Source: an uncultured Bacilli bacterium (GTDB lineage: Bacteria > Bacillota_I > Bacilli_A > RF39 > UBA660). Taken from it: DNA of 64,000 nucleotides. Each line of letters opens with the position of its first letter. Position 1 is the stretch's first letter. The stretch covers positions 136,067 to 200,066 of the forward strand of contig CAKOXW010000001.1 in the NCBI GenBank assembly GCA_934130375.1, given 5' to 3'. Position numbers and translations under genes: made by a program. Below, piece after piece: positions 1 to 57,442 of the stretch. Under the pieces are notes generated by a model that saw only the letters and a list, made by a program, of their open reading frames with translations, had not been told where the DNA came from and made no database searches.

Positions 1-683
1 TCTTTTGTATATACACTTCCTATAAATGGTAATCTTACTTGTCCATTTAGTGAATGCCCCGAAGCAATTAAATCAAAATTGTATTTAAGTACAGAAGTTA
101 CACCATCAGGATAGTGCGTTAATAATATTTTATAATTATATGTATTTAGATTTATATTTTCTTTAATCTCATTTGTTAAGCTTTTATCTGGTGAAATTCC
201 AGATAAAAATATTGTTTCATTTTTTTCATTATATATTACTTCATATGTATCATCTAGTGATATAAAGTTTGAATTACTCATAATTGTATCAAATGTTTTA
301 TATAATAAATCTTCATCGCCATTTACATAGTATTTGCCATAGTATGCATTTATATTTTTTAAATTTTCTATTAATACATTATCTATTTCCTTATTATATT
401 TTGTATTTTTATCTACTAAGTCTCCAGTAAATAATACAATGTCTGGTTTAGTTAAATTTATTTCTTTTACTAATTTTTTTAGTTTTTTTTCATTAGTCAT
501 TCCATAGTGCAAATCAGTTACATGAACAATTTTTAGACCATAGAAATTACCAATATTGTTATTTATTATTTTATATTCTTTTACCTTAATACCCATATTA
601 CCAATGTATCTTAGTAATATAAATAGGGTTGCGATAATAAGAATAACAAGGAATATTATTTTCCATTTCTTTTTTAGTTTCAT
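1..683 (-). CDS. Calcineurin-like metallophosphoesterase, membrane-anchored; partial, C-terminus lies beyond window start
   Basis: Not in ORF track (runs off the window edge). Revcomp from ATG at 681-683 reads MKLKKKWKIIFLVILIIATLF... (TM anchor), then HVTDLHYG...PDIVLFTGDL metallophosphatase motifs. Start overlaps the stop of the upstream CPBP gene. Confidence 0.6.
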   Translation of the reverse strand, partial: MKLKKKWKIIFLVILIIATLFILLRYIGNMGIKVKEYKIINNNIGNFYGLKIVHVTDLHYGMTNEKKLKKLVKEINLTKPDIVLFTGDLVDKNTKYNKEIDNVLIENLKNINAYYGKYYVNGDEDLLYKTFDTIMSNSNFISLDDTYEVIYNEKNETIFLSGISPDKSLTNEIKENINLNTYNYKILLTHYPDGVTSVLKYNFDLIASGHSLNGQVRLPFIGSVYTK

Positions 684-685
684 AG

Positions 686-1363
686 TTACCTCACAAAGTA
701 TAGTAGTAATAATATTGTGTTATGCATAAAGTGTATTGTTATTGTAGACCATATATTTTTTGAATCTATAAATATATACATGAATACTGCACCAAAAGAC
801 CCATAAGGTATTATGTATAATAAGTCTTGTAATGATTGATATGTACCAATAACATGTGCAATGCCAAAGATTAGTCCGGATGCGATAATGGCTAAGGTTT
901 TGTTTATGAATATATTTTTAATAGTTTTTCTATATATTAATTCTTCTACTATTGGTGCACATATACATACTGATAATGCTGAATATATAGGAAGAGTATC
1001 TGCAATAGACCTTACTGCTTGTTCATTGTTTGATAGTTCTTTTCCTGTTATAGCAGTTATTATAGTGTCTGTTAGTGTCATTAGTATTAATGCTAGCATA
1101 TACAATTTTACATATTTATCTAAATTATCTATAAAGTTTTCTTTATAATTTTTTAAATCTTTCTTTAAATCATCCTTATATATTAATACTAGTGTAATAA
1201 GTGGTATTAATTCTAATGAATAAATTAGTATTATTTTTACTAATCTTGATGCATTCATGTAATCAAATTTGAATAAATCAAATAAGAAAAATGCAATGTC
1301 AGAAAAGAAGTAATAAAATAAAAATACCATAACTCCTGTTATTATTTGCTTTAAATATTTCAT
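686..1363 (-). CDS. CPBP family intramembrane glutamic endopeptidase (CAAX protease / Abi-like)
   Basis: Polytopic membrane ORF with EELIYRKTI (EExxxR) and FGIAHV (FxxxH) motifs typical of CPBP/Abi proteases. Confidence 0.65.
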   Translation of the reverse strand: MKYLKQIITGVMVFLFYYFFSDIAFFLFDLFKFDYMNASRLVKIILIYSLELIPLITLVLIYKDDLKKDLKNYKENFIDNLDKYVKLYMLALILMTLTDTIITAITGKELSNNEQAVRSIADTLPIYSALSVCICAPIVEELIYRKTIKNIFINKTLAIIASGLIFGIAHVIGTYQSLQDLLYIIPYGSFGAVFMYIFIDSKNIWSTITIHFMHNTILLLLYFVR

Positions 1364-1399
1364 TTTGCCTCCAATCTTAATAATTATAGCATGTTTCTA

Positions 1400-1461
1400 T
1401 TGTTTTTTAAAGATAATGTGTTATAATATTTGTAGCAGCGAAGAGTGGGACAACCCACTCT
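1400..1461 (+). promoter_or_regulatory. Putative promoter (TTGTTT -35 at 1400-1405, TGT-TATAAT -10 at 1422-1427) followed by a leader hairpin agagtggg-acaa-cccactct (1442-1461) plus a U-rich tract, upstream of rimP-nusA-infB
   Basis: Hexamers and a perfect 8-bp GC-containing stem read directly. Position in the 5' leader of the nusA operon suggests NusA-dependent autoregulatory attenuation (inference). Confidence 0.4.
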
Positions 1462-1483
1462 TTGAAATTTATTTGGAGGAAGT

Positions 1484-1741
1484 ATGGGTTTAGAAGATAA
1501 GATTAGAAGTGTTATTGAAGAAAAAGTTAATGAAATTGGTATTAATATCGTATCAATTAAATATGAAAAAGAAAATGGAGTTAACTATTTAAGAATATTT
1601 ATTGATAAAGAACCATTTATAAATATAGATGATTGTGTTAAAGTAACTGAGATAGTTAATCCAATTTTAGATGAGTATGATTTTATAGATGAGCAATATA
1701 TGCTTGATATATCTTCAATAGAAAAAGGAGGGAATTTATAA
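1484..1741 (+). CDS. rimP: Ribosome maturation factor RimP, short form (N-terminal domain only, 85 aa)
   Basis: Sequence FIDKEPFINIDDCVKVTEIVNPILDE matches the RimP N-domain. Stop overlaps the nusA ATG (ATAATG). Conserved position before nusA. Confidence 0.6.
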   Translation: MGLEDKIRSVIEEKVNEIGINIVSIKYEKENGVNYLRIFIDKEPFINIDDCVKVTEIVNPILDEYDFIDEQYMLDISSIEKGGNL

Positions 1742-2820
1742 TGAACAAAGAAGAATTTATTAAGGCTGTTGATTTTGTTGCGAAAGAAAAAGGTATTTCT
1801 AAAGATATTATTTTTGAAGCAATGGAGTTAGCATTATTAACTGCTTATAAGAAGAATTTTGATTCTAAAACTAATGCGAGAGTTGATATTAATCGTGAGA
1901 CTGGTGAGATTAAGGTTTATAAAGTATTAACTGTTGTTGATAGTATAGATGAAGAAGATCCAGAAGCATATGCGAAAATATTAGAAAGTGATGCGGATAA
2001 GATAGTAAAGGGTATTAAAGTAGGTGAAACTATTGAAGAAGAGATTACACCTAAAGATTTTGGTAGAGTAGCAACTTCTACTGCTAAGCAAGTTATGACA
2101 CAGAAATTAAGAGAAGCAGAAAGAGAAAGTATTATGTCTGAATTTGAGGGAAAGCAAGATGAGTTACTTGTTGGACAAGTTTCAAGAGAAGATGGTTTAA
2201 ATTACTATATTGATTTAGGTAGAGCACATGGTATTTTACCTAAGAAGGAATTAATACCAGGTGAGAAAATTGAAATGGGCTCTTCAATTAAAGTATATGT
2301 TACTAAGATTGAGGATTCAAAAGGACCACTTATCTTGTTATCAAGAAATCATTTTGGATTTGTTAAAAGATTACTTGAGCATGAAGTACCTGAATTTGCA
2401 GATGGTACAGTAAAACTATATAGTGTTGCAAGAGACGCTGGTTCAAGAAGTAAAGTTGCTGTTTATTCTGATAATCCAAGAGTTGATGCGATTGGAGCAT
2501 GTATTGGTGAAAAGGGTAGTAGAATTGCTAATATAATGAAGGAATTAAATGGTGAGAAGTTAGATATAGTATTGTATGATAAAGATCCAGTTAAATTTAT
2601 TAAAAATGCACTTAGTCCTGCTAAGGATGTTAATGTTCTAATTATGGACCCAAAAGAAAATGCAGCGCTTGCAATTGCAGATGGTGAACAATTATCACTT
2701 GCAATTGGTAAGAAAGGTCAAAATGTAAGGCTTGCATCTCGTTTAACTAAATATAAAATTGATGTTAAGACAAGTGCTGAATTAAAAGATATGGGTATAA
2801 ATATTGGCTTTGAGGGATAA
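1741..2820 (+). CDS. nusA: Transcription termination/antitermination factor NusA
   Basis: N-terminal NusA domain, S1 and two KH domains recognisable (GRVATSTAKQVM..., GACIGEKGSRI..., AIGKKGQNVRLASRLT). Operon context is nusA-ylxR-infB-rbfA. Confidence 0.95.
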   Translation: MNKEEFIKAVDFVAKEKGISKDIIFEAMELALLTAYKKNFDSKTNARVDINRETGEIKVYKVLTVVDSIDEEDPEAYAKILESDADKIVKGIKVGETIEEEITPKDFGRVATSTAKQVMTQKLREAERESIMSEFEGKQDELLVGQVSREDGLNYYIDLGRAHGILPKKELIPGEKIEMGSSIKVYVTKIEDSKGPLILLSRNHFGFVKRLLEHEVPEFADGTVKLYSVARDAGSRSKVAVYSDNPRVDAIGACIGEKGSRIANIMKELNGEKLDIVLYDKDPVKFIKNALSPAKDVNVLIMDPKENAALAIADGEQLSLAIGKKGQNVRLASRLTKYKIDVKTSAELKDMGINIGFEG

Positions 2821-2821
2821 T

Positions 2822-3082
2822 ATGAAAAAGATACCACTAAGAACTTGTTGTGTAACGAAAGAAAAATGTGAAAAAAGAGATTTAATTAGAATTGTTAGAA
2901 TGCCTAGTGGAGAAGTAAAAGTAGATTTAACAGGAAAATTAAATGGTAGAGGAGCGTATATTAAGGCTGATAAATCAGTAATAGATAAAGCTAAGAAATC
3001 TAAGGTGTTAGATAGACATTTAGAGGTAAGTGTTCCTGATACTGTTTATGAGGAGTTAGTTAGTATAGTAGAAAATAGATAA
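2822..3082 (+). CDS. ylxR: YlxR/DUF448 family RNA-binding protein
   Basis: Sequence MKKIPLRTCCVTKEK...RGAYI is typical of YlxR. RBS GAGGGA lies before the ATG at 2822. The track start at 2804 overlaps the nusA end. Confidence 0.75.
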   Translation: MKKIPLRTCCVTKEKCEKRDLIRIVRMPSGEVKVDLTGKLNGRGAYIKADKSVIDKAKKSKVLDRHLEVSVPDTVYEELVSIVENR

Positions 3083-3094
3083 GAGGTGATAATT

Positions 3095-5182
3095 ATGATG
3101 AGTGTAAAAGAATATGCTTTAGATGTAGGTAGAAGTGTAAAAGTAATATTAGATAAGTGCAATACTTTAGGTTTTTCTGCATCAAATGAAGATGATATCT
3201 TAAGTGAAGATGAAGTAATTGATCTTGATAATGCTGTTTATGAAGATAATGAAGAAGAAAACTTAATAGATAAAGCAGAAGAAATAGTATCTAATATGAA
3301 AAATGTAGATGATACTGTTCATGTACAAAAACTTAAGAAGAAAAGTGATATTATAAGTGCAAATGATTTTAAAAAAGAAAAGAAAGAAATGTATAAGCAT
3401 AAAGAAAAATTAATGTCTAATGCACCAGTTAAGGAAGATAATAAAATTGTATATGAAGAAAATATGACATTGTCTAAATTAGCAGAGAAATTAAATGCTA
3501 ATCCTATTGATTTAATAAAGAAATTCATGTCACTTGGAGTTATGGCTAATTTAAATAGTGTTGTTTCTTATGATGATGCTGAATTAGTTGTAATGGATTA
3601 TGATAAAGAATTAAAAAAAGCAGAAACAATGGATGCTAGTAATTTTGAGAAACTTGAAATTACTGATGATGCTAAGGATTTAGAACAGAGGCCTCCAGTT
3701 GTAACAATAATGGGACATGTTGACCATGGTAAAACTAGTTTACTTGATACTATAAGAAGAAGTAATGTAGTATCAGGTGAAGCAGGTGGTATTACTCAAC
3801 ATATTGGTGCTTATCAAGTAGAGAAAAATGGTAAGAAAATTACATTTATTGATACTCCTGGACATGCAGCATTTACAGAGATGCGTGCTAGAGGAGCAGC
3901 AATTACTGATATAGTAATTATTATAGTTGCAGCAGATGATGGTGTAATGCCTCAAACTAAAGAAGCAATTGATCATGCTAAGGCTGCTAAGGTGCCTATT
4001 ATAGTTGCTGTAAATAAAATAGATAAACCAGATGCAAATATACAAAAAGTATTAACTGAGATGACTGAGGCAGGTTTAACGCCTGATAGTTGGGGAGGAG
4101 ATACTACATTTGTAAATATTTCTGCAAAAACTGGAGAAGGTATTGATGAGTTATTAGAAACAATTTTGTTAACTGCTGAAATGCAAGATTTAAAAGCAAA
4201 TAAAAATAGGTATGCTTTAGGTACAGTTATAGAGGCAAAACTTGATAAGAACGTTGGATCTGTAGTAACTCTACTTATTCAAAATGGAACTCTAAGGTTA
4301 GGGGATCCTATAGTAGTTGGTACTTGTTTTGGTAAAGTTAGAACATTAAAAAATGATTTAGGTGAACAAATTGCGCATGCACTTCCATCTACTCCAGTTG
4401 AAATAACAGGTTTAAATGAAATACCTTCTGCGGGGGATAAGTTTATGGCTTTTGAAACTGAGAAACAAGCAAAGAGTATTGCTGAGGCTAGAAAAGAGAA
4501 AATGAAAGAGAAATCTAATAAGAATAGTAATTCTGTTAGTCTTGATGATTTATTTTCTAAGATTGAAAGTGGAGTTAAAGAAGTAAATATTATTTTAAAA
4601 GCAGATGTAAAGGGTTCTGAAGAAGCAGTTAGAAATGCTTTAATGAAAGTAAATGTAGAAGGTGTTAGAACTAATATAATTAGAAGTGGTACTGGAACAA
4701 TTACTGAAAGTGATATTGTTCTTGCAAATGCATCAAGTGCAATTATTATTGGATTTAATGTAAGACCATCTTCTAAGACTAAAGAATTTGCTAAGGAATA
4801 TAATGTTGATATTAGATTACATAATATTATATATAAAGTAGTAGAAGAGTTAGAATCTGCTATGAAAGGTATGCTTGACCCTGAATATGAAGAAAAAGTA
4901 TTAGGTGAGGCTGAAGTTAGACAATTATTTAAATTTTCTAAAGTTGGTACGATAGCAGGTTCTTATGTAACAAATGGTATTATTAAATCTAATTCTAAGG
5001 CTAGATTAATGCGTGATGGTGTTGTTATTTATGATGGCAGTATTAATTCAGTACAAAGAGAAAAAGATAGTGTTAAAGAAGTAAAACAAGGATTTGAATG
5101 TGGTATAACTCTTACTGATTATAGTGATATAAAAGAAGGGGATATAATTGAATCTTATGAAATGCAAGAGGTAAAAAGATGA
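3095..5182 (+). CDS. infB: Translation initiation factor IF-2
   Basis: GTP-binding domain [35 protein letters not shown] 6 nt before the ATG at 3095; the track start at 3086 is GTG. Confidence 0.95.
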
Positions 5183-16795: not shown

Positions 16796-16816
16796 GTGTA
16801 TTCTTGGGCTTAAGTA
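16796..16816 (+). repeat. Copy of the recurrent 3' motif GTGTATTCTTGGGCTTAAGTA
   Basis: One of five near-identical copies (5538, 16796, 26731, 31717, 49547) following AT-rich terminators. Confidence 0.6.
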
Positions 16817-17045
16817 ATAAAATTTACAAAAATTAAAAAAATTACAAATTTATTAAATTTGTAACTTTTTTATAACTAATTTATTAAATTTGCTTAAACA
16901 GATTTCTAAAATTGTAAGTGTTTTTTACTTTAAAACCTTAAAATTTGCGATTTGACATATATTTTTAAGTTGATATGATGACATTGGAATACTTAACATT
17001 AGGTGATTGCCTTCTTGATTTTTAGTGATGAAGGGAGGTATGTGT

Positions 17046-17114
17046 ATGGTCAAAGATGTAACAGTCTTATTACTTGTAATTATCCTTCTTCTATTTGTGG
17101 TACGCTACTTATAG
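17046..17114 (+). CDS. Putative 22-aa hydrophobic peptide MVKDVTVLLLVIILLLFVVRYL (type I toxin-like / small membrane protein)
   Basis: AAGGGAGG SD 7 nt upstream of the ATG. Single TM-length hydrophobic core. Lies in an otherwise ORF-free 520-bp intergenic region. Followed by hairpin cctaatc-ataag-gattagg (17130-17148). Confidence 0.3.
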   Translation: MVKDVTVLLLVIILLLFVVRYL

Positions 17115-17313
17115 TTGAAATAAAAAAATTACCTAATCATAAGGATTAGGCATTTCTCATTTATGGGCAACACCTAATACCAGGTTAAGTGTTCCTTTTA
17201 TATTTTATGAAGAATCTCTTCATGTATTCATGATAGCACATTTTTTAATATAAATCAATTGATTAAAGAATTATTTTAGTGTATACTTTATGTATAGTAG
17301 AAAGGGTGAAATA

Positions 17314-18633
17314 ATGAAGAAGAAAAATGGGTTTACTTTGGTTGAATTACTAGCAGTAATAGTAATACTCGCAATTATCTTAGTTATTGCGGTACCTAAA
17401 ATTACTGACACAATAAAAAATTCAAAGATTGCATCATTTGAGAGTAGTGCGAAAACTATTGCTGCGCAAGCAGAAAAGAAGAAAATGGAGAAAGAAATAC
17501 TAGAAGATACTGGAAGTATTAGTTGTAGTGACATTGTTAAATTAAATGATACTGATTATGGTAATTGTAGTATAACTTTCGATGGTAATACTGCTAAGGT
17601 TAGTTTAGTAGGAAAGGGTAAGTTTGAAGGACTATCAGTAATAAATGGTACTAAAGATAATGCAACTGCTGGTGAAGTTAAAATGCCTGAATATGGTAAA
17701 GGAACAACATTTATAAAGGCTTTATATGATAGTGATATATTAAGAAAAACAAATGGGCTTAAGAAAGACAATACAAGTGATGCAAATATAAGGTATGAAG
17801 GAGCAAATCCAAATAACTATGTATCATTTAATGATGAGCTATGGAGAATAATAGGAGTATTTGGTGATAACATTAAGTTAGTTAGAAGTGAACAATTAGG
17901 TAAATTATCGTGGGATAGTTCGGATTATTCAGTTAATATTGGTGATGGAGTAAATGAGTGGAGCCAAGCCGATTTAAAAGAATATTTAAATACAATGTAT
18001 TATGGCGGAACTAGTGTAACATGTTATGGCGGAAGAAGAAATGTAACTACGACATGTCCAAGTGGTAACATAAATTCATCTGCAAAGTCAATGATAAATA
18101 ATTATACTTGGAATACAGGTGCAATAAATTATGATGATACAACAATTGTAAATCAAGAAACATTTGCACTAAATACTGTACCATTTTATAATGCTGAAAG
18201 AGGTTCAGTAACTGGTAAAATATGCACAAGTGGAGATTTCTGTAATGACACAATTGAAAGAAAAACAACATGGCCGGGTTATGTAGCATTACCATATACA
18301 ACTGATTGGGCATATGCAAGTAGTGAGACTGCATGTGCAACTAATATGAAAGATGGTTTTGTTGCTGATACCTTGAATGTTGATAATATGACATGTAAGA
18401 AAAATAACTGGATGCATCATGGTAGTACAGTGAATGAAGGTATGTGGATGCTTTCGCCTGGTGCTTATTCCGTCTATGCTTACTACGTGTGGAGTGTCTC
18501 TGGTTCTGGAAATGTCTACAAAGCTTTTGCGGATATTGCACTTCCCGTTTTCCCATCCGTATATCTAAATACTGAAGTCAAAATAACAAGTGGAAGTGGT
18601 TCAAGTAGTGACCCATATATACTTGGTGTATAG
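17314..18633 (+). CDS. Modular type IV pilin-like protein 1 (prepilin N-terminus + ~110-aa pilin module + ~330-aa Cys/Trp-rich C-terminal module)
   Basis: MKKKNGFTLVELLAVIVILAIIL is a class III signal peptide with G|FTLVE. N-terminal ~110 aa are about 60% identical to the two paralogues at 31967 and 49825. RBS AGAAAGGGTG. Confidence 0.7.
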   Translation: MKKKNGFTLVELLAVIVILAIILVIAVPKITDTIKNSKIASFESSAKTIAAQAEKKKMEKEILEDTGSISCSDIVKLNDTDYGNCSITFDGNTAKVSLVGKGKFEGLSVINGTKDNATAGEVKMPEYGKGTTFIKALYDSDILRKTNGLKKDNTSDANIRYEGANPNNYVSFNDELWRIIGVFGDNIKLVRSEQLGKLSWDSSDYSVNIGDGVNEWSQADLKEYLNTMYYGGTSVTCYGGRRNVTTTCPSGNINSSAKSMINNYTWNTGAINYDDTTIVNQETFALNTVPFYNAERGSVTGKICTSGDFCNDTIERKTTWPGYVALPYTTDWAYASSETACATNMKDGFVADTLNVDNMTCKKNNWMHHGSTVNEGMWMLSPGAYSVYAYYVWSVSGSGNVYKAFADIALPVFPSVYLNTEVKITSGSGSSSDPYILGV

Positions 18634-18636
18634 ATT

Positions 18637-18663
18637 AAGTGCTAGTTTACTAGTGCTTTTTTT
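18637..18663 (+). terminator. Rho-independent terminator (aagtgctagt..actagtgctt + T7)
   Basis: Perfect inverted repeat followed by TTTTTTT immediately after the pilin-1 stop. Confidence 0.6.
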
Positions 18664-26731: not shown

Positions 26732-26754
26732 GTGTATTCGTGGGCTTAAATAAT
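26731..26754 (+). repeat. Copy of recurrent 3' motif TGTGTATTCGTGGGCTTAAATAAT
   Basis: Motif family, see 16796. Confidence 0.55.
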
Positions 26755-26876: not shown

Positions 26877-27764
26877 ATGAATTACTATGATGAAATAAAA
26901 AAAGAATTAGTAAATAATGAAATATATAAAAGAGTAAAAGATTATTCAAAGAACAGACATGATTTAAGTACGTATTACAATGTAGGTAAATTATTAAGTG
27001 AGGCAGGTAAGAGTTATGGTGATGGCATTATTAAGGAATATAGTAAAAGACTTACAAATGAATTAGGGAAAGGTTATGGCATTAGTACATTAAAAAATAT
27101 GAGAAAATATTATATATTATCAAAAAGCCAGGCACTGCCTGGCCTTTTGACATGGTCACATTATTGTGAATTGTTTTCAATAAAAAATATAGATGAGATT
27201 AGATATTATATAGATATTTCTATTTCACAAAATTTAAGTTATAGAGAATTAAGAAATAGAATAAAATCAAAAGAATATGAAAGATTAGATAATAAAACAA
27301 AAGAAAAACTAATTAATAAAGAAGATACTATAGTAAGTGATTTTATAAAAGACCCAATTATAATTAATAATAGTTTAAATTATATAGAAATATCGGAAAG
27401 AGTATTAAAGGAATTAATATTAAATGATTTAGATAATTTTCTTAATCAATTAGGTAATGGTTTTTGCTATATTGGTTCTGAATACAAGATTAAGATTGGA
27501 AATACTTATAATTATATAGATATATTACTTTATAACATTGAATTTAATTGTTATGTAGTTGTAGAGTTGAAAGTAACTGAATTAAGAAAAGAGCATATTG
27601 GACAAATTGAAATATATATGAATTATATTGATAAAAATGTAAAAAAAATTGGTATGGATAATACAATTGGTTTAATAATATCTAAGTATAAAAATGAGTA
27701 TATAATTGAATACTCAAGTGATAGTCGTATTAAAGTAACTACTTATTTGATAAAGCAGAATTAA
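26877..27764 (+). CDS. DUF1016 / YhcG-like PD-(D/E)XK nuclease family protein
   Basis: C-terminal GFCYIGSEYKI...YIDILLYNIEFNCYVVVELKVTEL...GQIEIYMNYID matches the YhcG restriction-endonuclease-like core. RBS AAAGGAGGA. Confidence 0.65.
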   Translation: MNYYDEIKKELVNNEIYKRVKDYSKNRHDLSTYYNVGKLLSEAGKSYGDGIIKEYSKRLTNELGKGYGISTLKNMRKYYILSKSQALPGLLTWSHYCELFSIKNIDEIRYYIDISISQNLSYRELRNRIKSKEYERLDNKTKEKLINKEDTIVSDFIKDPIIINNSLNYIEISERVLKELILNDLDNFLNQLGNGFCYIGSEYKIKIGNTYNYIDILLYNIEFNCYVVVELKVTELRKEHIGQIEIYMNYIDKNVKKIGMDNTIGLIISKYKNEYIIEYSSDSRIKVTTYLIKQN

Positions 27765-31716: not shown

Positions 31717-32288
31717 ATATGTATTCTTTGACTTAAGTAGTTTATATTATATATTTATAAATTTATATGTTAAAGATTATAAGTTTTATATTATTTTGAA
31801 TACAAGTAACATCCCCTAATAATTAGTTAAAAAGTGGTTGTTTTGATATAAAATGTTAAAACTTTTGTAAATTTTCGTCAAAAATAGACCTAAAAAACGC
31901 CCTCGCCCATTGCCAAATGGGGGGGGGTGTATAGTATAATAACCTTGTATAATAGAGGAGGAAATTATGAAGAAAAAGAAGGGTTTTACTTTAGTAGAAT
32001 TATTAGCAGTAATAGTTATTTTGGCAGTTATACTAATTATTGCAATGCCAAAAATAAGTGATGTAATTAAGAATTCTAAGGAAGCATCATTAGAAACAAC
32101 TGCAAAATTAATAGCAAGTCAGGCAGAAAAGAAATATACTGAAAATCAAGTATTAGATGGTTCAACTACAATAAAATGTAGTGATGTTGCTAAGATAAGT
32201 GATACTGATTATGAAAGTTGTAATATTACTTTTGATAGTAAAGGTAATGCTAAAGTAACAATAGTAGGTAAGGGTAAGTTTGAAGGTT
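31717..32288 (+). repeat. Cassette B: ~570 bp (recurrent 3' motif + leader + promoter + first ~107 codons of pilin-like gene 2), near-identical to 49547-50146
   Basis: Aligned by eye: shared leader ...ttatattattttgaatacaagtaacatcc...gatataaaatgttaaaa...tttgtaaattttcgtcaaaaatag..cgcc..cgcccattgccaaatggggggggg...aggaggaaat and nearly identical N-terminal coding. Confidence 0.7.
31919..31927 (+). repeat. G9 homopolymer between the TTGCCA (31910-31915) and TATAAT (31935-31940) hexamers
   Basis: Counted directly. Spacer is 19 nt. Confidence 0.8.
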
Positions 32289-32875
32289 TACAAGTAGTAG
32301 ATGGAACTAAAGATAGTGCAAAAGCAAGCGCTAAGAAAGAAATTGTTGAAACTGCTGCTAAGTATTTTAGTTATGAAGAAGTGGAAGGCGGTATGTCAAT
32401 AACAGGTTATAATATTGCTGGAGGAACTGATGTAGTAATACCATCACAAATAGATGGTAAGACAGTTGTTGCTATTGGAGATTTGGCATTTACAACAAGA
32501 GGTATTATACCAACACTTACTGCTTATAATAATGATTATAAAGTAAGTTTATTAAGTTATAATTCTAATAATAATTATGTGGTAAAACCGCTTGTAACAG
32601 ATCTTAAAGGTTTAGGAATAACTTCGGTAGTGATACCTAATACAGTAACAAGCATAGGTAATAATGCATTTGCTGATAATAAGTTAACTAATATTACAAT
32701 ACCATCAAGTGTTATTGAAATAAGTCTTGAAGCGTTTTACGGCAATCAAATAAGTTCAATTACATTTCCTGATACACCAATCACTCTTGGCTGTAGAGTA
32801 TTTGCTCGTAATCCAATTTCTGCAGATGAAACTTATAGTTTACCAAGTAATGTTACTTATGTATGTGTAAATTGA
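31967..32875 (+). CDS. Modular type IV pilin-like protein 2 (pilin module + BspA-type leucine-rich-repeat module)
   Basis: MKKKKGFTLVELLAVIVILAVIL prepilin N-terminus. C-terminal repeats ...IPNTVTSIGNNAFADNKLTNITIPSSVIEISLEAFYGN... are typical of BspA-like LRR surface proteins. RBS GGAGGA. Confidence 0.7.
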   Translation: MKKKKGFTLVELLAVIVILAVILIIAMPKISDVIKNSKEASLETTAKLIASQAEKKYTENQVLDGSTTIKCSDVAKISDTDYESCNITFDSKGNAKVTIVGKGKFEGLQVVDGTKDSAKASAKKEIVETAAKYFSYEEVEGGMSITGYNIAGGTDVVIPSQIDGKTVVAIGDLAFTTRGIIPTLTAYNNDYKVSLLSYNSNNNYVVKPLVTDLKGLGITSVVIPNTVTSIGNNAFADNKLTNITIPSSVIEISLEAFYGNQISSITFPDTPITLGCRVFARNPISADETYSLPSNVTYVCVN

Positions 32876-32947
32876 TATTTTAATTTAGATTGTTAAAGAG
32901 ATAGATTTCTATCTTTTTTTCTTGTATAATAATTATGGAGGTAAAGT

Positions 32948-49546: not shown

Positions 49547-50146
49547 ATATGTATTCTTGGGCTTTATTAGTTTATATTACATTTATAAAAGAATTACAAA
49601 AAAGTAATTCTTTTAAACTTATATATTAAAGATTATATAGTTTTATATTATTTTGAATACAAGTAACATCCAGTTAAAAATAGCTAAAAAGTAGTTATTT
49701 GATATAAAATGTTAAAAACTTTGTAAATTTTCGTCAAAAATAGGCCTGAAAAACGCCTCCGCCCATTGCCAAATGGGGGGGGGTGTTATGCTATAATAAT
49801 TACATAAAATAGAGGAGGAAATTTATGAAGAAAAAGAAGGGTTTTACTTTAGTGGAATTATTAGCAGTAATAGTTATTTTGGCAGTTATACTAATTATTG
49901 CAATGCCAAAAATAAGTGATGTAATTAAGAATTCTAAAGAAGCATCATTAGAAACAACTGCAAAGTTAATAGCAAGTCAAGCAGAGAAGAAATATACTGA
50001 AAATCAAGTATTAGATGGTAGTAGTACAATAAAATGTAGTGATGTTGCTAAGATAAATGATGCTGACTATGAAAGTTGTAATATTACTTTTGATGATAAG
50101 GGTAATGCAAAAGTATCAATAGTAGGTAAGGGTAAGTTTGAAGGTA
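49547..50146 (+). repeat. Cassette C: ~600 bp near-identical to cassette B (31717-32288)
   Basis: See cassette B. Encoded N-termini differ at only a handful of residues over ~107 aa. Confidence 0.7.
49775..49783 (+). repeat. G9 homopolymer between TTGCCA (49766-49771) and TATAAT (49792-49797)
   Basis: Counted directly. Spacer is 20 nt. Confidence 0.8.
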
Positions 50147-50898
50147 TGGCTGTATGCAATGCTAATAAGAATAGTGCATCTATATCTAGTGATTGTTCAA
50201 CAAATGCATCTTATTTTACATATGAGGACACTACTATAGTAACTAACGTTATTGTTGAAGATGCGAATAAGTGCAAGAGTTATATTCAAACAAAGCATTT
50301 AACTGAAGAACAAGCAACAACGTTGTGTACTGAAGGTTCAATAACAATTGGTGAATCTACTGGTTCGTTAAAAGATTTAGTTGTAGTTGGTGCGATACCA
50401 TCAAGTGATTATGAGACAGTAGGATTAAGAATAGAAACAAAAGATGGTATATCAATAACTGGTTATAATATAGAAGGAGGAACTGATGTAGTAATACCAT
50501 CACAAATAGATGGCAAGACAGTTGTTGCTATTGGAGATAATACAAGTGATGGTCTAGGAATAACTTCAGTGGTAATACCAAATTCAGTGACAAGCATAGG
50601 TATGAATGCATTTAGATGGAACAAATTAACAAATGTAACAATTCCATCAAGTGTTAAAACAATAGGTCATAGTGCATTTAGAGGGAACAAATTAACAAAT
50701 GTAACAATTCCTAGTAGTGTTATTTCAATAGATTACTATGCTTTTAATAGTAATCCAAATATTGTAATTACCAATAATTCGAGTATTGAAAATACACAAG
50801 ATGTTTGGGATAAAATTTTAGGAATAGACGGGTCATGTTCTCCGAAAGTAACTATAACAAATAATATTATTGAAATAGGTGTGGGACCTAATTGCTAA
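49825..50898 (+). CDS. Modular type IV pilin-like protein 3 (pilin module + Cys-containing linker + BspA-type LRR module)
   Basis: Same prepilin N-terminus. Shares internal blocks SITGYNIEGGTDVVIPSQIDGKTVVAIGD and GLGITSVVIPNSVTSIG with protein 2 (mosaic). LRR-type repeats NKLTNVTIPSSV. Confidence 0.7.
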   Translation: MKKKKGFTLVELLAVIVILAVILIIAMPKISDVIKNSKEASLETTAKLIASQAEKKYTENQVLDGSSTIKCSDVAKINDADYESCNITFDDKGNAKVSIVGKGKFEGMAVCNANKNSASISSDCSTNASYFTYEDTTIVTNVIVEDANKCKSYIQTKHLTEEQATTLCTEGSITIGESTGSLKDLVVVGAIPSSDYETVGLRIETKDGISITGYNIEGGTDVVIPSQIDGKTVVAIGDNTSDGLGITSVVIPNSVTSIGMNAFRWNKLTNVTIPSSVKTIGHSAFRGNKLTNVTIPSSVISIDYYAFNSNPNIVITNNSSIENTQDVWDKILGIDGSCSPKVTITNNIIEIGVGPNC

Positions 50899-50971
50899 AG
50901 TGAGTAATAAATCTCACTTTTTAAATTGATATTAATAATTTAAAATGGTATAATATTGTTGGGTGGTAAAG

Positions 50972-55834: not shown

Positions 55835-56009
55835 ACAGATGTATTTTTCATATACGATTAAAAAGAATAAAATCTAATCGTAAATGGAAAAATGTCAAAG
55901 GAAATGTTACTTTTGCAATTATAAAGTTAATAAAATAATTAAAAAAGTAACAAAAAATATTTCTTTTTGAAATTAAATATTGTATAATTGTTTTGTAGAG
56001 GTGTTAGAT

Positions 56010-56603
56010 ATGAGTGATTTAGAAAAGATTTTAAGTTTAGTACAAAAAAATGATGGTTATATTACAACAAAAGAAGTGGTGGAAAACGGGTTAAATAAAA
56101 TGGCATTAAAAAGATTGTGTGATGGAGGTTTATTAGAAAGAGTATCAACCGGTTATTATTCTTTGCCTAATATTTTTAACGATGAATATTATAAGATTAT
56201 ATCAAAAAGTAAAAATGCTGTTTTTTCTTATGCTACATCTTTGTTTTTGCATGATTTATCAGACCGAACGCCATTATATTTTGATATAACCGTACCACGT
56301 GGTTATGGCGGACCTTTACAAAATATTGAGACAGTCTCACTTCATTATGTAGATAATAGTCTTTTAAACTTAGGAATGGAAATAATTAAATCTCCATTTG
56401 GGATGAACATTAAATGTTATGATGTTGAAAGGACTATGTGTGATATTATTAAAGATAGAAATCATATGGATAAAGAAATTTATTCTAAGGCTTTAAAATG
56501 GTATGCAGAAAGGAAGGATAAAGATATGTTAAAACTTGCTAAATACTCAAAAAGATTAAATATAGAAAAAGAAGTTGTAGAAATTATGCAATTAATTTTA
56601 TGA
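56010..56603 (+). CDS. AbiEi-type antitoxin/transcriptional regulator (type IV TA / abortive infection)
   Basis: ~200-aa protein with N-terminal wHTH-like region directly upstream of, and overlapping, an AbiEii-family nucleotidyltransferase gene. RBS GAGGTG. Confidence 0.6.
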   Translation: MSDLEKILSLVQKNDGYITTKEVVENGLNKMALKRLCDGGLLERVSTGYYSLPNIFNDEYYKIISKSKNAVFSYATSLFLHDLSDRTPLYFDITVPRGYGGPLQNIETVSLHYVDNSLLNLGMEIIKSPFGMNIKCYDVERTMCDIIKDRNHMDKEIYSKALKWYAERKDKDMLKLAKYSKRLNIEKEVVEIMQLIL

Positions 56604-57442
56604 TGAATAGCGATAAATTAAATGCGCTTATTAAAAAGCGTGCTAATGGAAGCAACGATATGTCATTGCATCTTCATCAAATGTTTTTCTTTGAACATGT
56701 TTTAATGAGACTTGAAAAAAGTAAATATAGGGATAATATTATTTTAAAAGGAGGAGTATTACTTTCTTCAATTATCGGGAGTGATATGAGAACTACAAAA
56801 GATATAGATGCTACACTGAAAAGTATTGCTCTAAATGAAGAAACGATTAGAGATATATTTGAAGAAATATTATCTATTAATATAGATGATGGAGTTTCAT
56901 TTAAAATTGAAAATATTAAAGATATTAGATTAGAAGATGAATATGGTGGTTATCGAATAAATGTTTATGGAAAATTTGATAAATTAAAAACATATTTCTT
57001 TATTGAAGTAACAACAGGTGATGTAATTACTCCAAGAGAAATCGATTATAAATATAATTCTATTTTTGAAGATAAAATCATCAATATTATGGCATATACG
57101 ATTGAAACTATAATTGCAGAAAAACTAGAGAGTATTATTAGTAAAAATATTTCTACAACAAGGGCTAAAGATTTTTATGATATGTATATAATAGTAAATA
57201 AACACAAAGAAAAAATAAATAAAGATACTTTAATTATGGCAGTAAAAAGAACTTTTAACCATAGAAATACTAGATACGATATTGAATATTTAAAAGAAGT
57301 TTATAATCTTTTAAAAGATAGTGCAATATTAAAAGAACTTTTTAATAACTATAGTAAGAAACTCGATTATGCTAAAAATGTAAAATACGAAGAAACAATT
57401 GCTGCTATAAATGAAGTTATTAATATTTTAGAAACGAATTAG
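56600..57442 (+). CDS. AbiEii/AbiGii family nucleotidyltransferase toxin (DUF1814)
   Basis: KGGVLLSS...RTTKDIDAT nucleotidyltransferase signature. 4-nt overlap with the upstream gene. Confidence 0.7.
   Translation: MMNSDKLNALIKKRANGSNDMSLHLHQMFFFEHVLMRLEKSKYRDNIILKGGVLLSSIIGSDMRTTKDIDATLKSIALNEETIRDIFEEILSINIDDGVSFKIENIKDIRLEDEYGGYRINVYGKFDKLKTYFFIEVTTGDVITPREIDYKYNSIFEDKIINIMAYTIETIIAEKLESIISKNISTTRAKDFYDMYIIVNKHKEKINKDTLIMAVKRTFNHRNTRYDIEYLKEVYNLLKDSAILKELFNNYSKKLDYAKNVKYEETIAAINEVINILETN

Follow-up and report, generated by a model that had tools for sequence, protein, structure and literature searches.

A family of prepilin-type modular proteins with shuffled C-terminal modules in an uncultured human-gut Bacilli bacterium

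Modular pilins were defined by structure-function work on PilB of Streptococcus sanguinis (Raynaud et al. 2021, PMC8179133), and an InterPro survey in the same paper found more than 1,200 proteins in 264 architectures. Experimental tests of modular pilins have come only from S. sanguinis. The locus considered here raises the question of whether the same design is used, and in what genomic organization, by a gut bacterium from a lineage without cultured members. It is a stretch of 64,000 nucleotides (hereafter the window; GC content 26%) from a 216-kb contig of a Hadza human-gut metagenome (CAKOXW010000001.1, positions 136,067 to 200,066; uncultured Bacilli, RF39), in which an earlier note had described a three-member family of modular type IV pilin-like proteins. 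On the evidence presented below, we consider it probable, with moderate confidence, that these genes encode modular type IV pilins, that is, a constant carrier joined to interchangeable ligand-binding modules, with display on a filament, shuffling of the modules, and possibly switching of individual copies.

All three open reading frames (ORFs) named in the note are present on the forward strand, namely copy 1 (17314..18633, 439 aa), copy 2 (31967..32875, 302 aa), and copy 3 (49825..50898, 357 aa), and each begins with a pilin module covering residues 1-122 (17314-17679, 31967-32332, and 49825-50190, respectively). Copy 1 has a further in-frame ATG upstream at 17290, and its ribosome-binding site fits the start at 17314. 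The N-terminus is MKKKNGFTLVELLAVIVILA in copy 1 and MKKKKGFTLVELLAVIVILA in copies 2 and 3, and the prepilin motif occurs in the six-frame translation of the window in these three copies only. Comparison of the N-termini with profiles of pilin families bore out the class III (prepilin) signal proposed for all three proteins, because both Pfam N_methyl (PF07963; 32.7-33.5 bits, with 33.5 in copy 2; cutoff 21.2) and TIGR02532 (28-29 bits; cutoff 16.3) were matched above their cutoffs in every copy. Residues E11 and P28 of the precursor (Glu5 and Pro22 of the mature protein) are invariant in A1, A3, and A4; the role of Glu5 in type IV pilins has been described previously (PMC10191384). The predicted fold is pilin-like, showing the "lollipop" arrangement of a long N-terminal alpha-helix (alpha1, predicted to span 55 residues) on a head of antiparallel beta-sheet. 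Between copies 2 and 3, identity over the first 112 aa is 92%, in line with the near-identity claimed for them, whereas copy 1 shares 67-68% with copies 2/3, a higher value than the approximately 60% given before. Each copy has its own ribosome-binding site and, after the stop codon, a terminator-like hairpin with a T-run read from the sequence (18638..18663, 32896..32920, and 50899..50922, all on the forward strand), which indicates that all three are monocistronic.

The beta-hairpin of the pilin head (residues ~78-106 of copy 2, window ~32198-32284), TDYESCNITFDSKGNAKVTIVGKGKFEG, was also found to resemble an Ig-like repeat, "...GTDYTVxYxNNxNxGTATVTxTGKGNFEG...", which is present in 10-14 repeats in very large Firmicute surface proteins (P0457, P0424, and P0516 were compared). 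This likeness of sequence may reflect shared ancestry or convergence.

The C-terminal modules differ among the copies. The BspA-type leucine-rich repeats (LRRs) claimed for copies 2 and 3 were recovered at residues 217-299 of copy 2 (32615-32863) and residues 236-314 of copy 3 (50530-50766), where the Pfam family LRR_5 scored 57.9 and 66.3 bits, respectively (cutoff 27.7). An AlphaFold2 (AF2) model of copy 3, with a mean predicted local distance difference test (pLDDT) of 76 and a predicted template modelling score (pTM) of 0.62, contains a confident LRR solenoid, and Foldseek matched it to known BspA-type structures with E values of 4e-5 to 1.5e-3 (Treponema pallidum TpLRR, 6mlx, at 4e-5, followed by Faecalibacterium 4gt6, Bacteroides 4fs7, and pneumococcal PcpA 4cp6). 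A middle domain of alpha/beta type, also modelled confidently by AF2 and matching no family, lies in copy 3 between the pilin module and the LRRs (residues 131-214, 50215-50466). The module of copy 1 (residues 125-439, 17686-18630) is Cys/Trp-rich as described (6 Cys, 9 Trp), although it is 315 aa long and not about 330. It matched no family in the Pfam search; a sequence-profile search of the PDB with copy 1 returned matches to pilin N-termini only, with none to this module, and AF2 modelling of the module with 30 close homologues gave a pLDDT below 50 and no usable fold. DUF6273 (PF19789) was matched weakly in 3 of 30 homologues of copy 1. One homologue, P0224, carries two tandem copies of the module, one of which matches DUF6273 with 33.8 bits (cutoff 23.5) in a segment that aligns to residues ~365-420 of copy 1. 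A direct hhalign comparison of the copy 1 module with bona fide DUF6273 was weak (probability 4.6%, E 0.009), with the register as expected (WMLSP/WFLRSP). We regard the module as DUF6273-like with low confidence, the likeness being a distant one.

The family is larger than the three members reported previously, since the genome holds at least five. A fourth member of 395 aa, combining N_methyl with DUF285 repeats, is encoded on the same strand of this contig, at a distance of 2.5-3.7 kb ahead of window position 1 (locus L006, 13860-15047, minus strand in L006), and its pilin module is 71-72% identical to those of copies 2/3. At the same site in a sister strain (L007, 13860-15227), the protein is 455 aa long and contains more DUF285 repeats, and therefore the number of DUF285 repeats at this locus varies between strains. 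The fifth member, of 449 aa with N_methyl and LRR_5, is found in the same sample on NODE_232, a contig of similar coverage (L094, 10001-11350), between pgsA and recA. The combination of a pilin module with a non-pilus domain thus rests on matches above Pfam cutoffs for LRR_5 in copies 2, 3, and 5 and for DUF285 in copy 4.

Related proteins are widespread in metagenomes. The pilin module alone yielded 2,472 matches at E<=0.001, the architecture of copy 1 more than 4,570 matches (mostly ~440 aa), and copy 3 a total of 5,851 matches, the best 120 of which carry N_methyl plus LRR_5 in nearly every case. When the globular head alone was searched against ~15 billion proteins, with one representative taken per 50% cluster, 361 representatives were found, most of them 250-700 aa long and nearly all with the head at residues ~29-121. 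Among metagenome homologues, the same carrier bears LRR_5, DUF285, Flg_new, dockerin, or DUF6273 modules. Relatives in reference genomes belong to metagenome-assembled genomes (MAGs) labelled Bacilli, Tenericutes, Mollicutes, Erysipelotrichaceae, or "Clostridium sp.", the best match in the reference-genome collection being 63% identical, and loci of MAGs labelled Bacilli, Tenericutes, or Mollicutes often contain prepilin-type ORFs of 300-1,090 aa.

As far as sequence and predicted fold go, the earlier interpretation as modular type IV pilins is therefore supported, whereas the suggestion that the LRR fusion is unusual was overstated. Dataset S1 of PMC8179133 lists IPR012902-IPR026906 for 18 proteins plus 6 with two copies, and IPR012902-IPR005046 for 9 proteins plus 4 with three copies. 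In InterPro, IPR026906 is the BspA-type LRR region and IPR005046 is DUF285. Since both architectures are listed there, fusions of N_methyl with LRR and with DUF285 had already been catalogued, and they are the same domain combinations as in copies 2/3 and the fourth paralogue. That dataset counts database entries only, whereas the present proteins form a large gut-metagenome family with a multi-copy genomic organization. The survey itself placed the LRR domain among those of "no clear function", and our literature search found no paper studying pilin-LRR/DUF285 fusions or pili in RF39/RFN20-type lineages.

Exchange of cassettes between the paralogues, which had been proposed from blocks shared by copies 2 and 3, is well supported by comparisons of DNA and alleles. 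The two blocks named previously, SITGYNI.GGTDVVIPSQIDGKTVVAIGD and GLGITSVVIPN.VTSIG, were both verified. At the DNA level, copies 2/3 share a 536-bp block at 91% identity, extending from approximately -210 to +320 relative to the ATG and reaching about codon 107; further 3' they have in common 93 bp at 94% and, in the LRR part, 107 bp at 82%, with unrelated insertions between the blocks. The fifth paralogue is itself a mosaic, comprising two tandem copy-3 middle domains, the SITGYNI block, an insertion otherwise found in copy 2 only, and a copy-3-type tail. In L090, an orthologue of the copy 3 locus from another sample (97% identical), the -10 region is that of the copy-2 version, and at the gatB-GGDEF locus the alleles of different strains are only 57-89% identical to copy 3. 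Exact matches to NusA and ParE were found on 115 and 101 contigs, respectively, and those to pilin copies 1, 2, and 3 on only 22, 14, and 6, which is consistent with a faster turnover of the pilin genes.

The conserved unit takes in an upstream block that starts with TGTATTC(T/G)TGGGCTTAAGTA directly 3' of the terminator of the preceding housekeeping gene. Its left-boundary motif (consensus TGTATTC(T/G)TGGGCTTAA(G/A)TA) is found on the forward strand upstream of copy 1, right after the terminator of the upstream gene (TGTATTCTTGGGCTTAAGTA, 16797..16816), copy 2 (31720..31739), and copy 3 (49550..49569), and also in L004 and L089-L098. The motif may mark the edge of a cassette or be a site for a regulator. 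A fourth occurrence in the window (26733-26752) precedes a DUF1016/YhcG-type gene (26877-27764) and not a pilin gene. The region upstream of copy 1 is unusually long (545 bp) and contains a 24-codon ORF with a good ribosome-binding site (17040-17114, forward strand) for a very hydrophobic peptide, MCMVKDVTVLLLVIILLLFVVRYL, possibly a small peptide of the membrane or the product of a toxin-like gene.

The upstream regions of copies 2 and 3 also share a hairpin, CGCC(C/T)(T/C)CGCCCATT-GCC-AAATGGGGGGGGGTG, the 3' arm of which is a run of nine G residues. It is located at 31897..31930 for copy 2 (G9 at 31919-31927) and at 49752..49787 for copy 3 (G9 at 49775-49783), both on the forward strand. With an expectation of 0, the pattern was found at these two places in the window and nowhere else. 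Apart from the two G9 runs, no run of G or C in these 64 kb of 26% GC exceeds 5, as would be looked for in a contingency locus, i.e., a long homopolymer in a promoter or 5' region that is exceptional for its genome. For copy 2, the loop and 3' arm contain a -35-like TTGCCA (31910-31915), which a 19-nt spacer separates from TATAAT (31935-31940). For copy 3, TTGCCA (49766-49771) is followed by an extended -10 element (TGn), TGCTATAAT (49789-49797), with a spacer of 20 nt to TATAAT. RNA folding gave -27 to -29 kcal/mol with z of -2.4 to -3.6 (-29.3 and -3.6 for copy 2). The element recurs 5' to the fifth member (L094) and to family members from other metagenomes: with G10 before a copy-1-type gene in L088, with G9 before a DUF285-type gene in L089, with G9 in L090 and throughout L093-L095 (at ~9950 in L093-L098), and, in the allelic locus L091, with G10, TTGTCA, and a different pyrimidine arm. 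In L096/L097/L098, the run is G9/G8/G9 while the coding sequence and flanks are identical (few assemblies), and L092b (~9950) has an interrupted run, GGGAGGGGG.

Across 9 distinct instances of the hairpin, 96% of cells are paired, compared with 44-73% in slid registers; the changes behind this figure are all one-sided (C/U, facing a G-run that does not vary), and shuffling gave no informative control. Covariation was considered as proof of an RNA hairpin and set aside, the one-sided changes being consistent with such a hairpin but not proof of it. A riboswitch or other known RNA (e.g., for control by cyclic di-GMP) was likewise rejected, as Rfam at the gathering threshold detected only a tRNA in the window, and a permissive scan returned only SpF66, below threshold (24.6 bits, cutoff 42). 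A reading of the hairpin as an intrinsic terminator is not supported either: the terminator scan called none, and the tail is not a U-run.

The polymorphism of run length at one locus, together with the interrupted variant, is what would be expected of slipped-strand switching, and the G-run hairpin is in our view a candidate phase-variation or regulatory element. Several points weigh against the switching part of our interpretation. All observed spacers are 19-20 nt and none is 17, the modal length of the run is 9, and homopolymer assembly error is a possible source of the G8/G9/G10 differences. A structural role is equally possible because the run is at the same time the 3' arm of a conserved hairpin. 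G9 runs were observed just upstream of prepilin genes in other Firmicutes as well, in L031 (~9987, Peptoniphilus duerdenii, where the run lies within the ribosome-binding region) and L017 (~137); homopolymer control of pilin genes may be more widespread.

How might such proteins work? The carrier would be formed by the class III signal peptide and the small pilin fold, and the modules by BspA-type LRRs, DUF285 repeats, or the DUF6273-like Cys/Trp-rich domain. The hydrophobic alpha1N helix would insert the precursor into the membrane, and a prepilin peptidase encoded elsewhere would cut after Gly6, leaving a mature protein with Phe1 and Glu5. We infer that a type IV filament machine (Com-type or type IVa pilus-type, also encoded elsewhere) would then take up the pilin module as a low-abundance subunit, whereby the bulky C-terminal module would be displayed beyond the cell wall as an adhesin. 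Recombination would diversify the family by keeping the promoter and pilin-module region constant while shuffling the 3' modules, and some copies might be switched individually by changes of G-run length in the promoter-proximal hairpin.

The components of such a machine were looked for around the genes. As stated in the earlier note, no pilB, pilC, pilD, or pilM lies in the window, according to reading of the ORFs of at least 100 aa, Pfam tables for part of the window, and signature scans. No GspE/PilB ATPase, GspF/PilC platform protein, or A24 peptidase was detected in the window, its 10-kb extension, and the 20-kb L094 locus; the analysis covered ~104 kb attributed to this genome. Nor was machinery found with family members in contexts L002-L005, L018, and L090-L100. 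PROSITE-style and Walker-A scans covered ~1.3 Mb of loci, and Pfam tables were available for L001 and L006. PilB/PilT-type genes were seen only beside distant N-terminal relatives, in loci of Clostridium, Ruminococcus, Oscillospiraceae, and Erysipelotrichaceae.

The fact that family genes were never linked to machinery in ~17 contexts speaks for a different explanation, namely that the pilin-type N-terminus serves surface anchoring without a filament. Here, a prepilin peptidase would process the proteins and alpha1N would keep them in the membrane, singly or as a short pseudopilus stub, and the 55-residue alpha1 helix could act as a stalk. In archaea, sugar-binding proteins with class III signals form the "bindosome"; by analogy, the system would be a general route of surface-protein display in a reduced-genome lineage, which would agree with the many paralogues in this genome (at least five) and with the very common long prepilin-type ORFs in related MAGs. 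Nevertheless, Glu5 and Pro22, which are relevant to docking and packing of filament subunits, are invariant, and the presence of peptidoglycan synthesis genes (mraY, ftsW, and those for penicillin-binding proteins) means that a membrane anchor would need to project the module through the wall. We regard such filament-free anchoring as possible but rather unlikely. If there were no prepilin peptidase and no pilin biology at all, the N-terminus would be a generic signal-anchor, a hydrophobic transmembrane helix matching N_methyl by chance. The absence of machinery from the loci seen so far and the shortness of the Pfam motif (27 residues) speak for this possibility; the invariant Glu5 and Pro22 and the predicted pilin-like fold have been given above, and we judge a chance match to be very improbable.

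The proteins might also be minor pilins of the competence (Com) pseudopilus, with C-terminal modules that capture DNA or other cells and not host ligands. The lineage is Bacilli-like, and among NCBIfam families ComGC and ComGE are the most similar (E ~1e-9 to 1e-7). However, the scores are far below the equivalog cutoffs (36.7-37.3 bits against 75 for ComGC and 27-32 bits against 49 for ComGE) and involve the N-terminal helix only, so that no NCBIfam ComG equivalog score in the window copies places them among competence pseudopilins; moreover, LRR_5 and DUF285 are adhesin-type or variable-surface modules and not DNA-binding ones. Related strains (L096-L098, ~600-3460) have a gene of the ComK family some 7 kb 5' to a pilin-LRR paralogue. 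This gene hints at a competence regulon in the lineage, but it adjoins a gene for a TraG/VirD4-like coupling protein and may belong to a mobile element. Overall, we regard a role as such minor pilins as improbable.

We return to the interpretation as modular type IV pilins to compare it with known systems. S. sanguinis PilB (vWA module) and PilC (lectin module) (PMC8179133; Shahin et al. 2023, PMC9934059) likewise combine a class III signal and a small pilin module with a short linker to a bulky non-pilus domain, in a monoderm host and with a predicted role in adhesion. In S. sanguinis, these are single genes inside the pil operon together with the machinery, whereas here at least five scattered monocistronic paralogues lie among housekeeping genes and carry LRR_5, DUF285, or DUF6273-like modules. 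What sets the family apart from characterized modular pilins is the organization, i.e., scattered single-gene cassettes, active shuffling of modules, and the G-run hairpin. What appears here is the modular-pilin design in multiple copies with shuffled modules, in a family found in great numbers in the gut metagenomes of humans and animals and belonging to lineages without cultured members. If displayed on filaments, these proteins would probably be major determinants of the attachment of small-genome gut bacteria to mucus, host cells, or other microbes. BspA-type LRR proteins, such as T. pallidum TpLRR, Streptococcus pneumoniae PcpA, and Tannerella BspA, have the same LRR_5 repeat module; they attach by Sec signal peptides, lipoprotein anchors, choline-binding repeats, or the type IX secretion system, whereas the anchor here is a pilin module.

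Variable surface systems of Mollicutes offer another parallel, being multi-gene surface families in small AT-rich genomes with a homopolymer in the promoter region and strain-variable repeat number. In the vlp genes of Mycoplasma hyorhinis, a poly-A tract lies in the promoter spacer. Those systems have a lipoprotein signal, whereas the present family has a pilin-module anchor and a poly-G run inside a hairpin, and its switching is only a candidate. DUF285 repeats are common to the fourth paralogue and the DUF285/PARCEL repeat proteins of Mollicutes (PMC2996958). A G-run placed between a -35-like and a -10 hexamer and apparently varying by 1 nt between isolates is also reminiscent of promoter-spacer phase variation in Neisseria, but the spacers here are 19-20 nt and the run doubles as the 3' arm of a conserved hairpin. 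Homopolymers in Neisseria promoter spacers include the poly-G of porA and the poly-C of opc. A bolder extension, which we put forward tentatively and rather doubt, is that the pilin module is a universal carrier for a large recombining adhesin repertoire made of self-contained cassettes, many of them toggled independently by G-run slippage. If true, the family would parallel, on the basis of pilins, the variable-lipoprotein systems of mycoplasmas and would provide stochastic variation of surface adhesins in a commensal. The G-run hairpin would offer a simple genetic handle on on/off variation in metagenomic reads.

The remaining gene content of the window is of housekeeping type, including nusA, infB, rbfA, parE, infC, rplT, def, mutS, nusB, ppa, dut, dnaE, rnhC, trx, a gene for a penicillin-binding protein, mraY, ftsW, and two two-component systems. 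In another organism (L002, L003, and L099; 10001-10534 plus flanks), a short family member ends a block of unannotated genes and adjoins a serine recombinase near a sortase-dependent (SpaA/VWA) pilus cluster, and an integrated element may be what carries the pilin-like gene there. In the window, two overlapping ORFs of 207 and 280 aa (55980-57442, forward strand) were found by eye to resemble an AbiEi/AbiEii-type toxin-antitoxin pair and are candidates for such a system.
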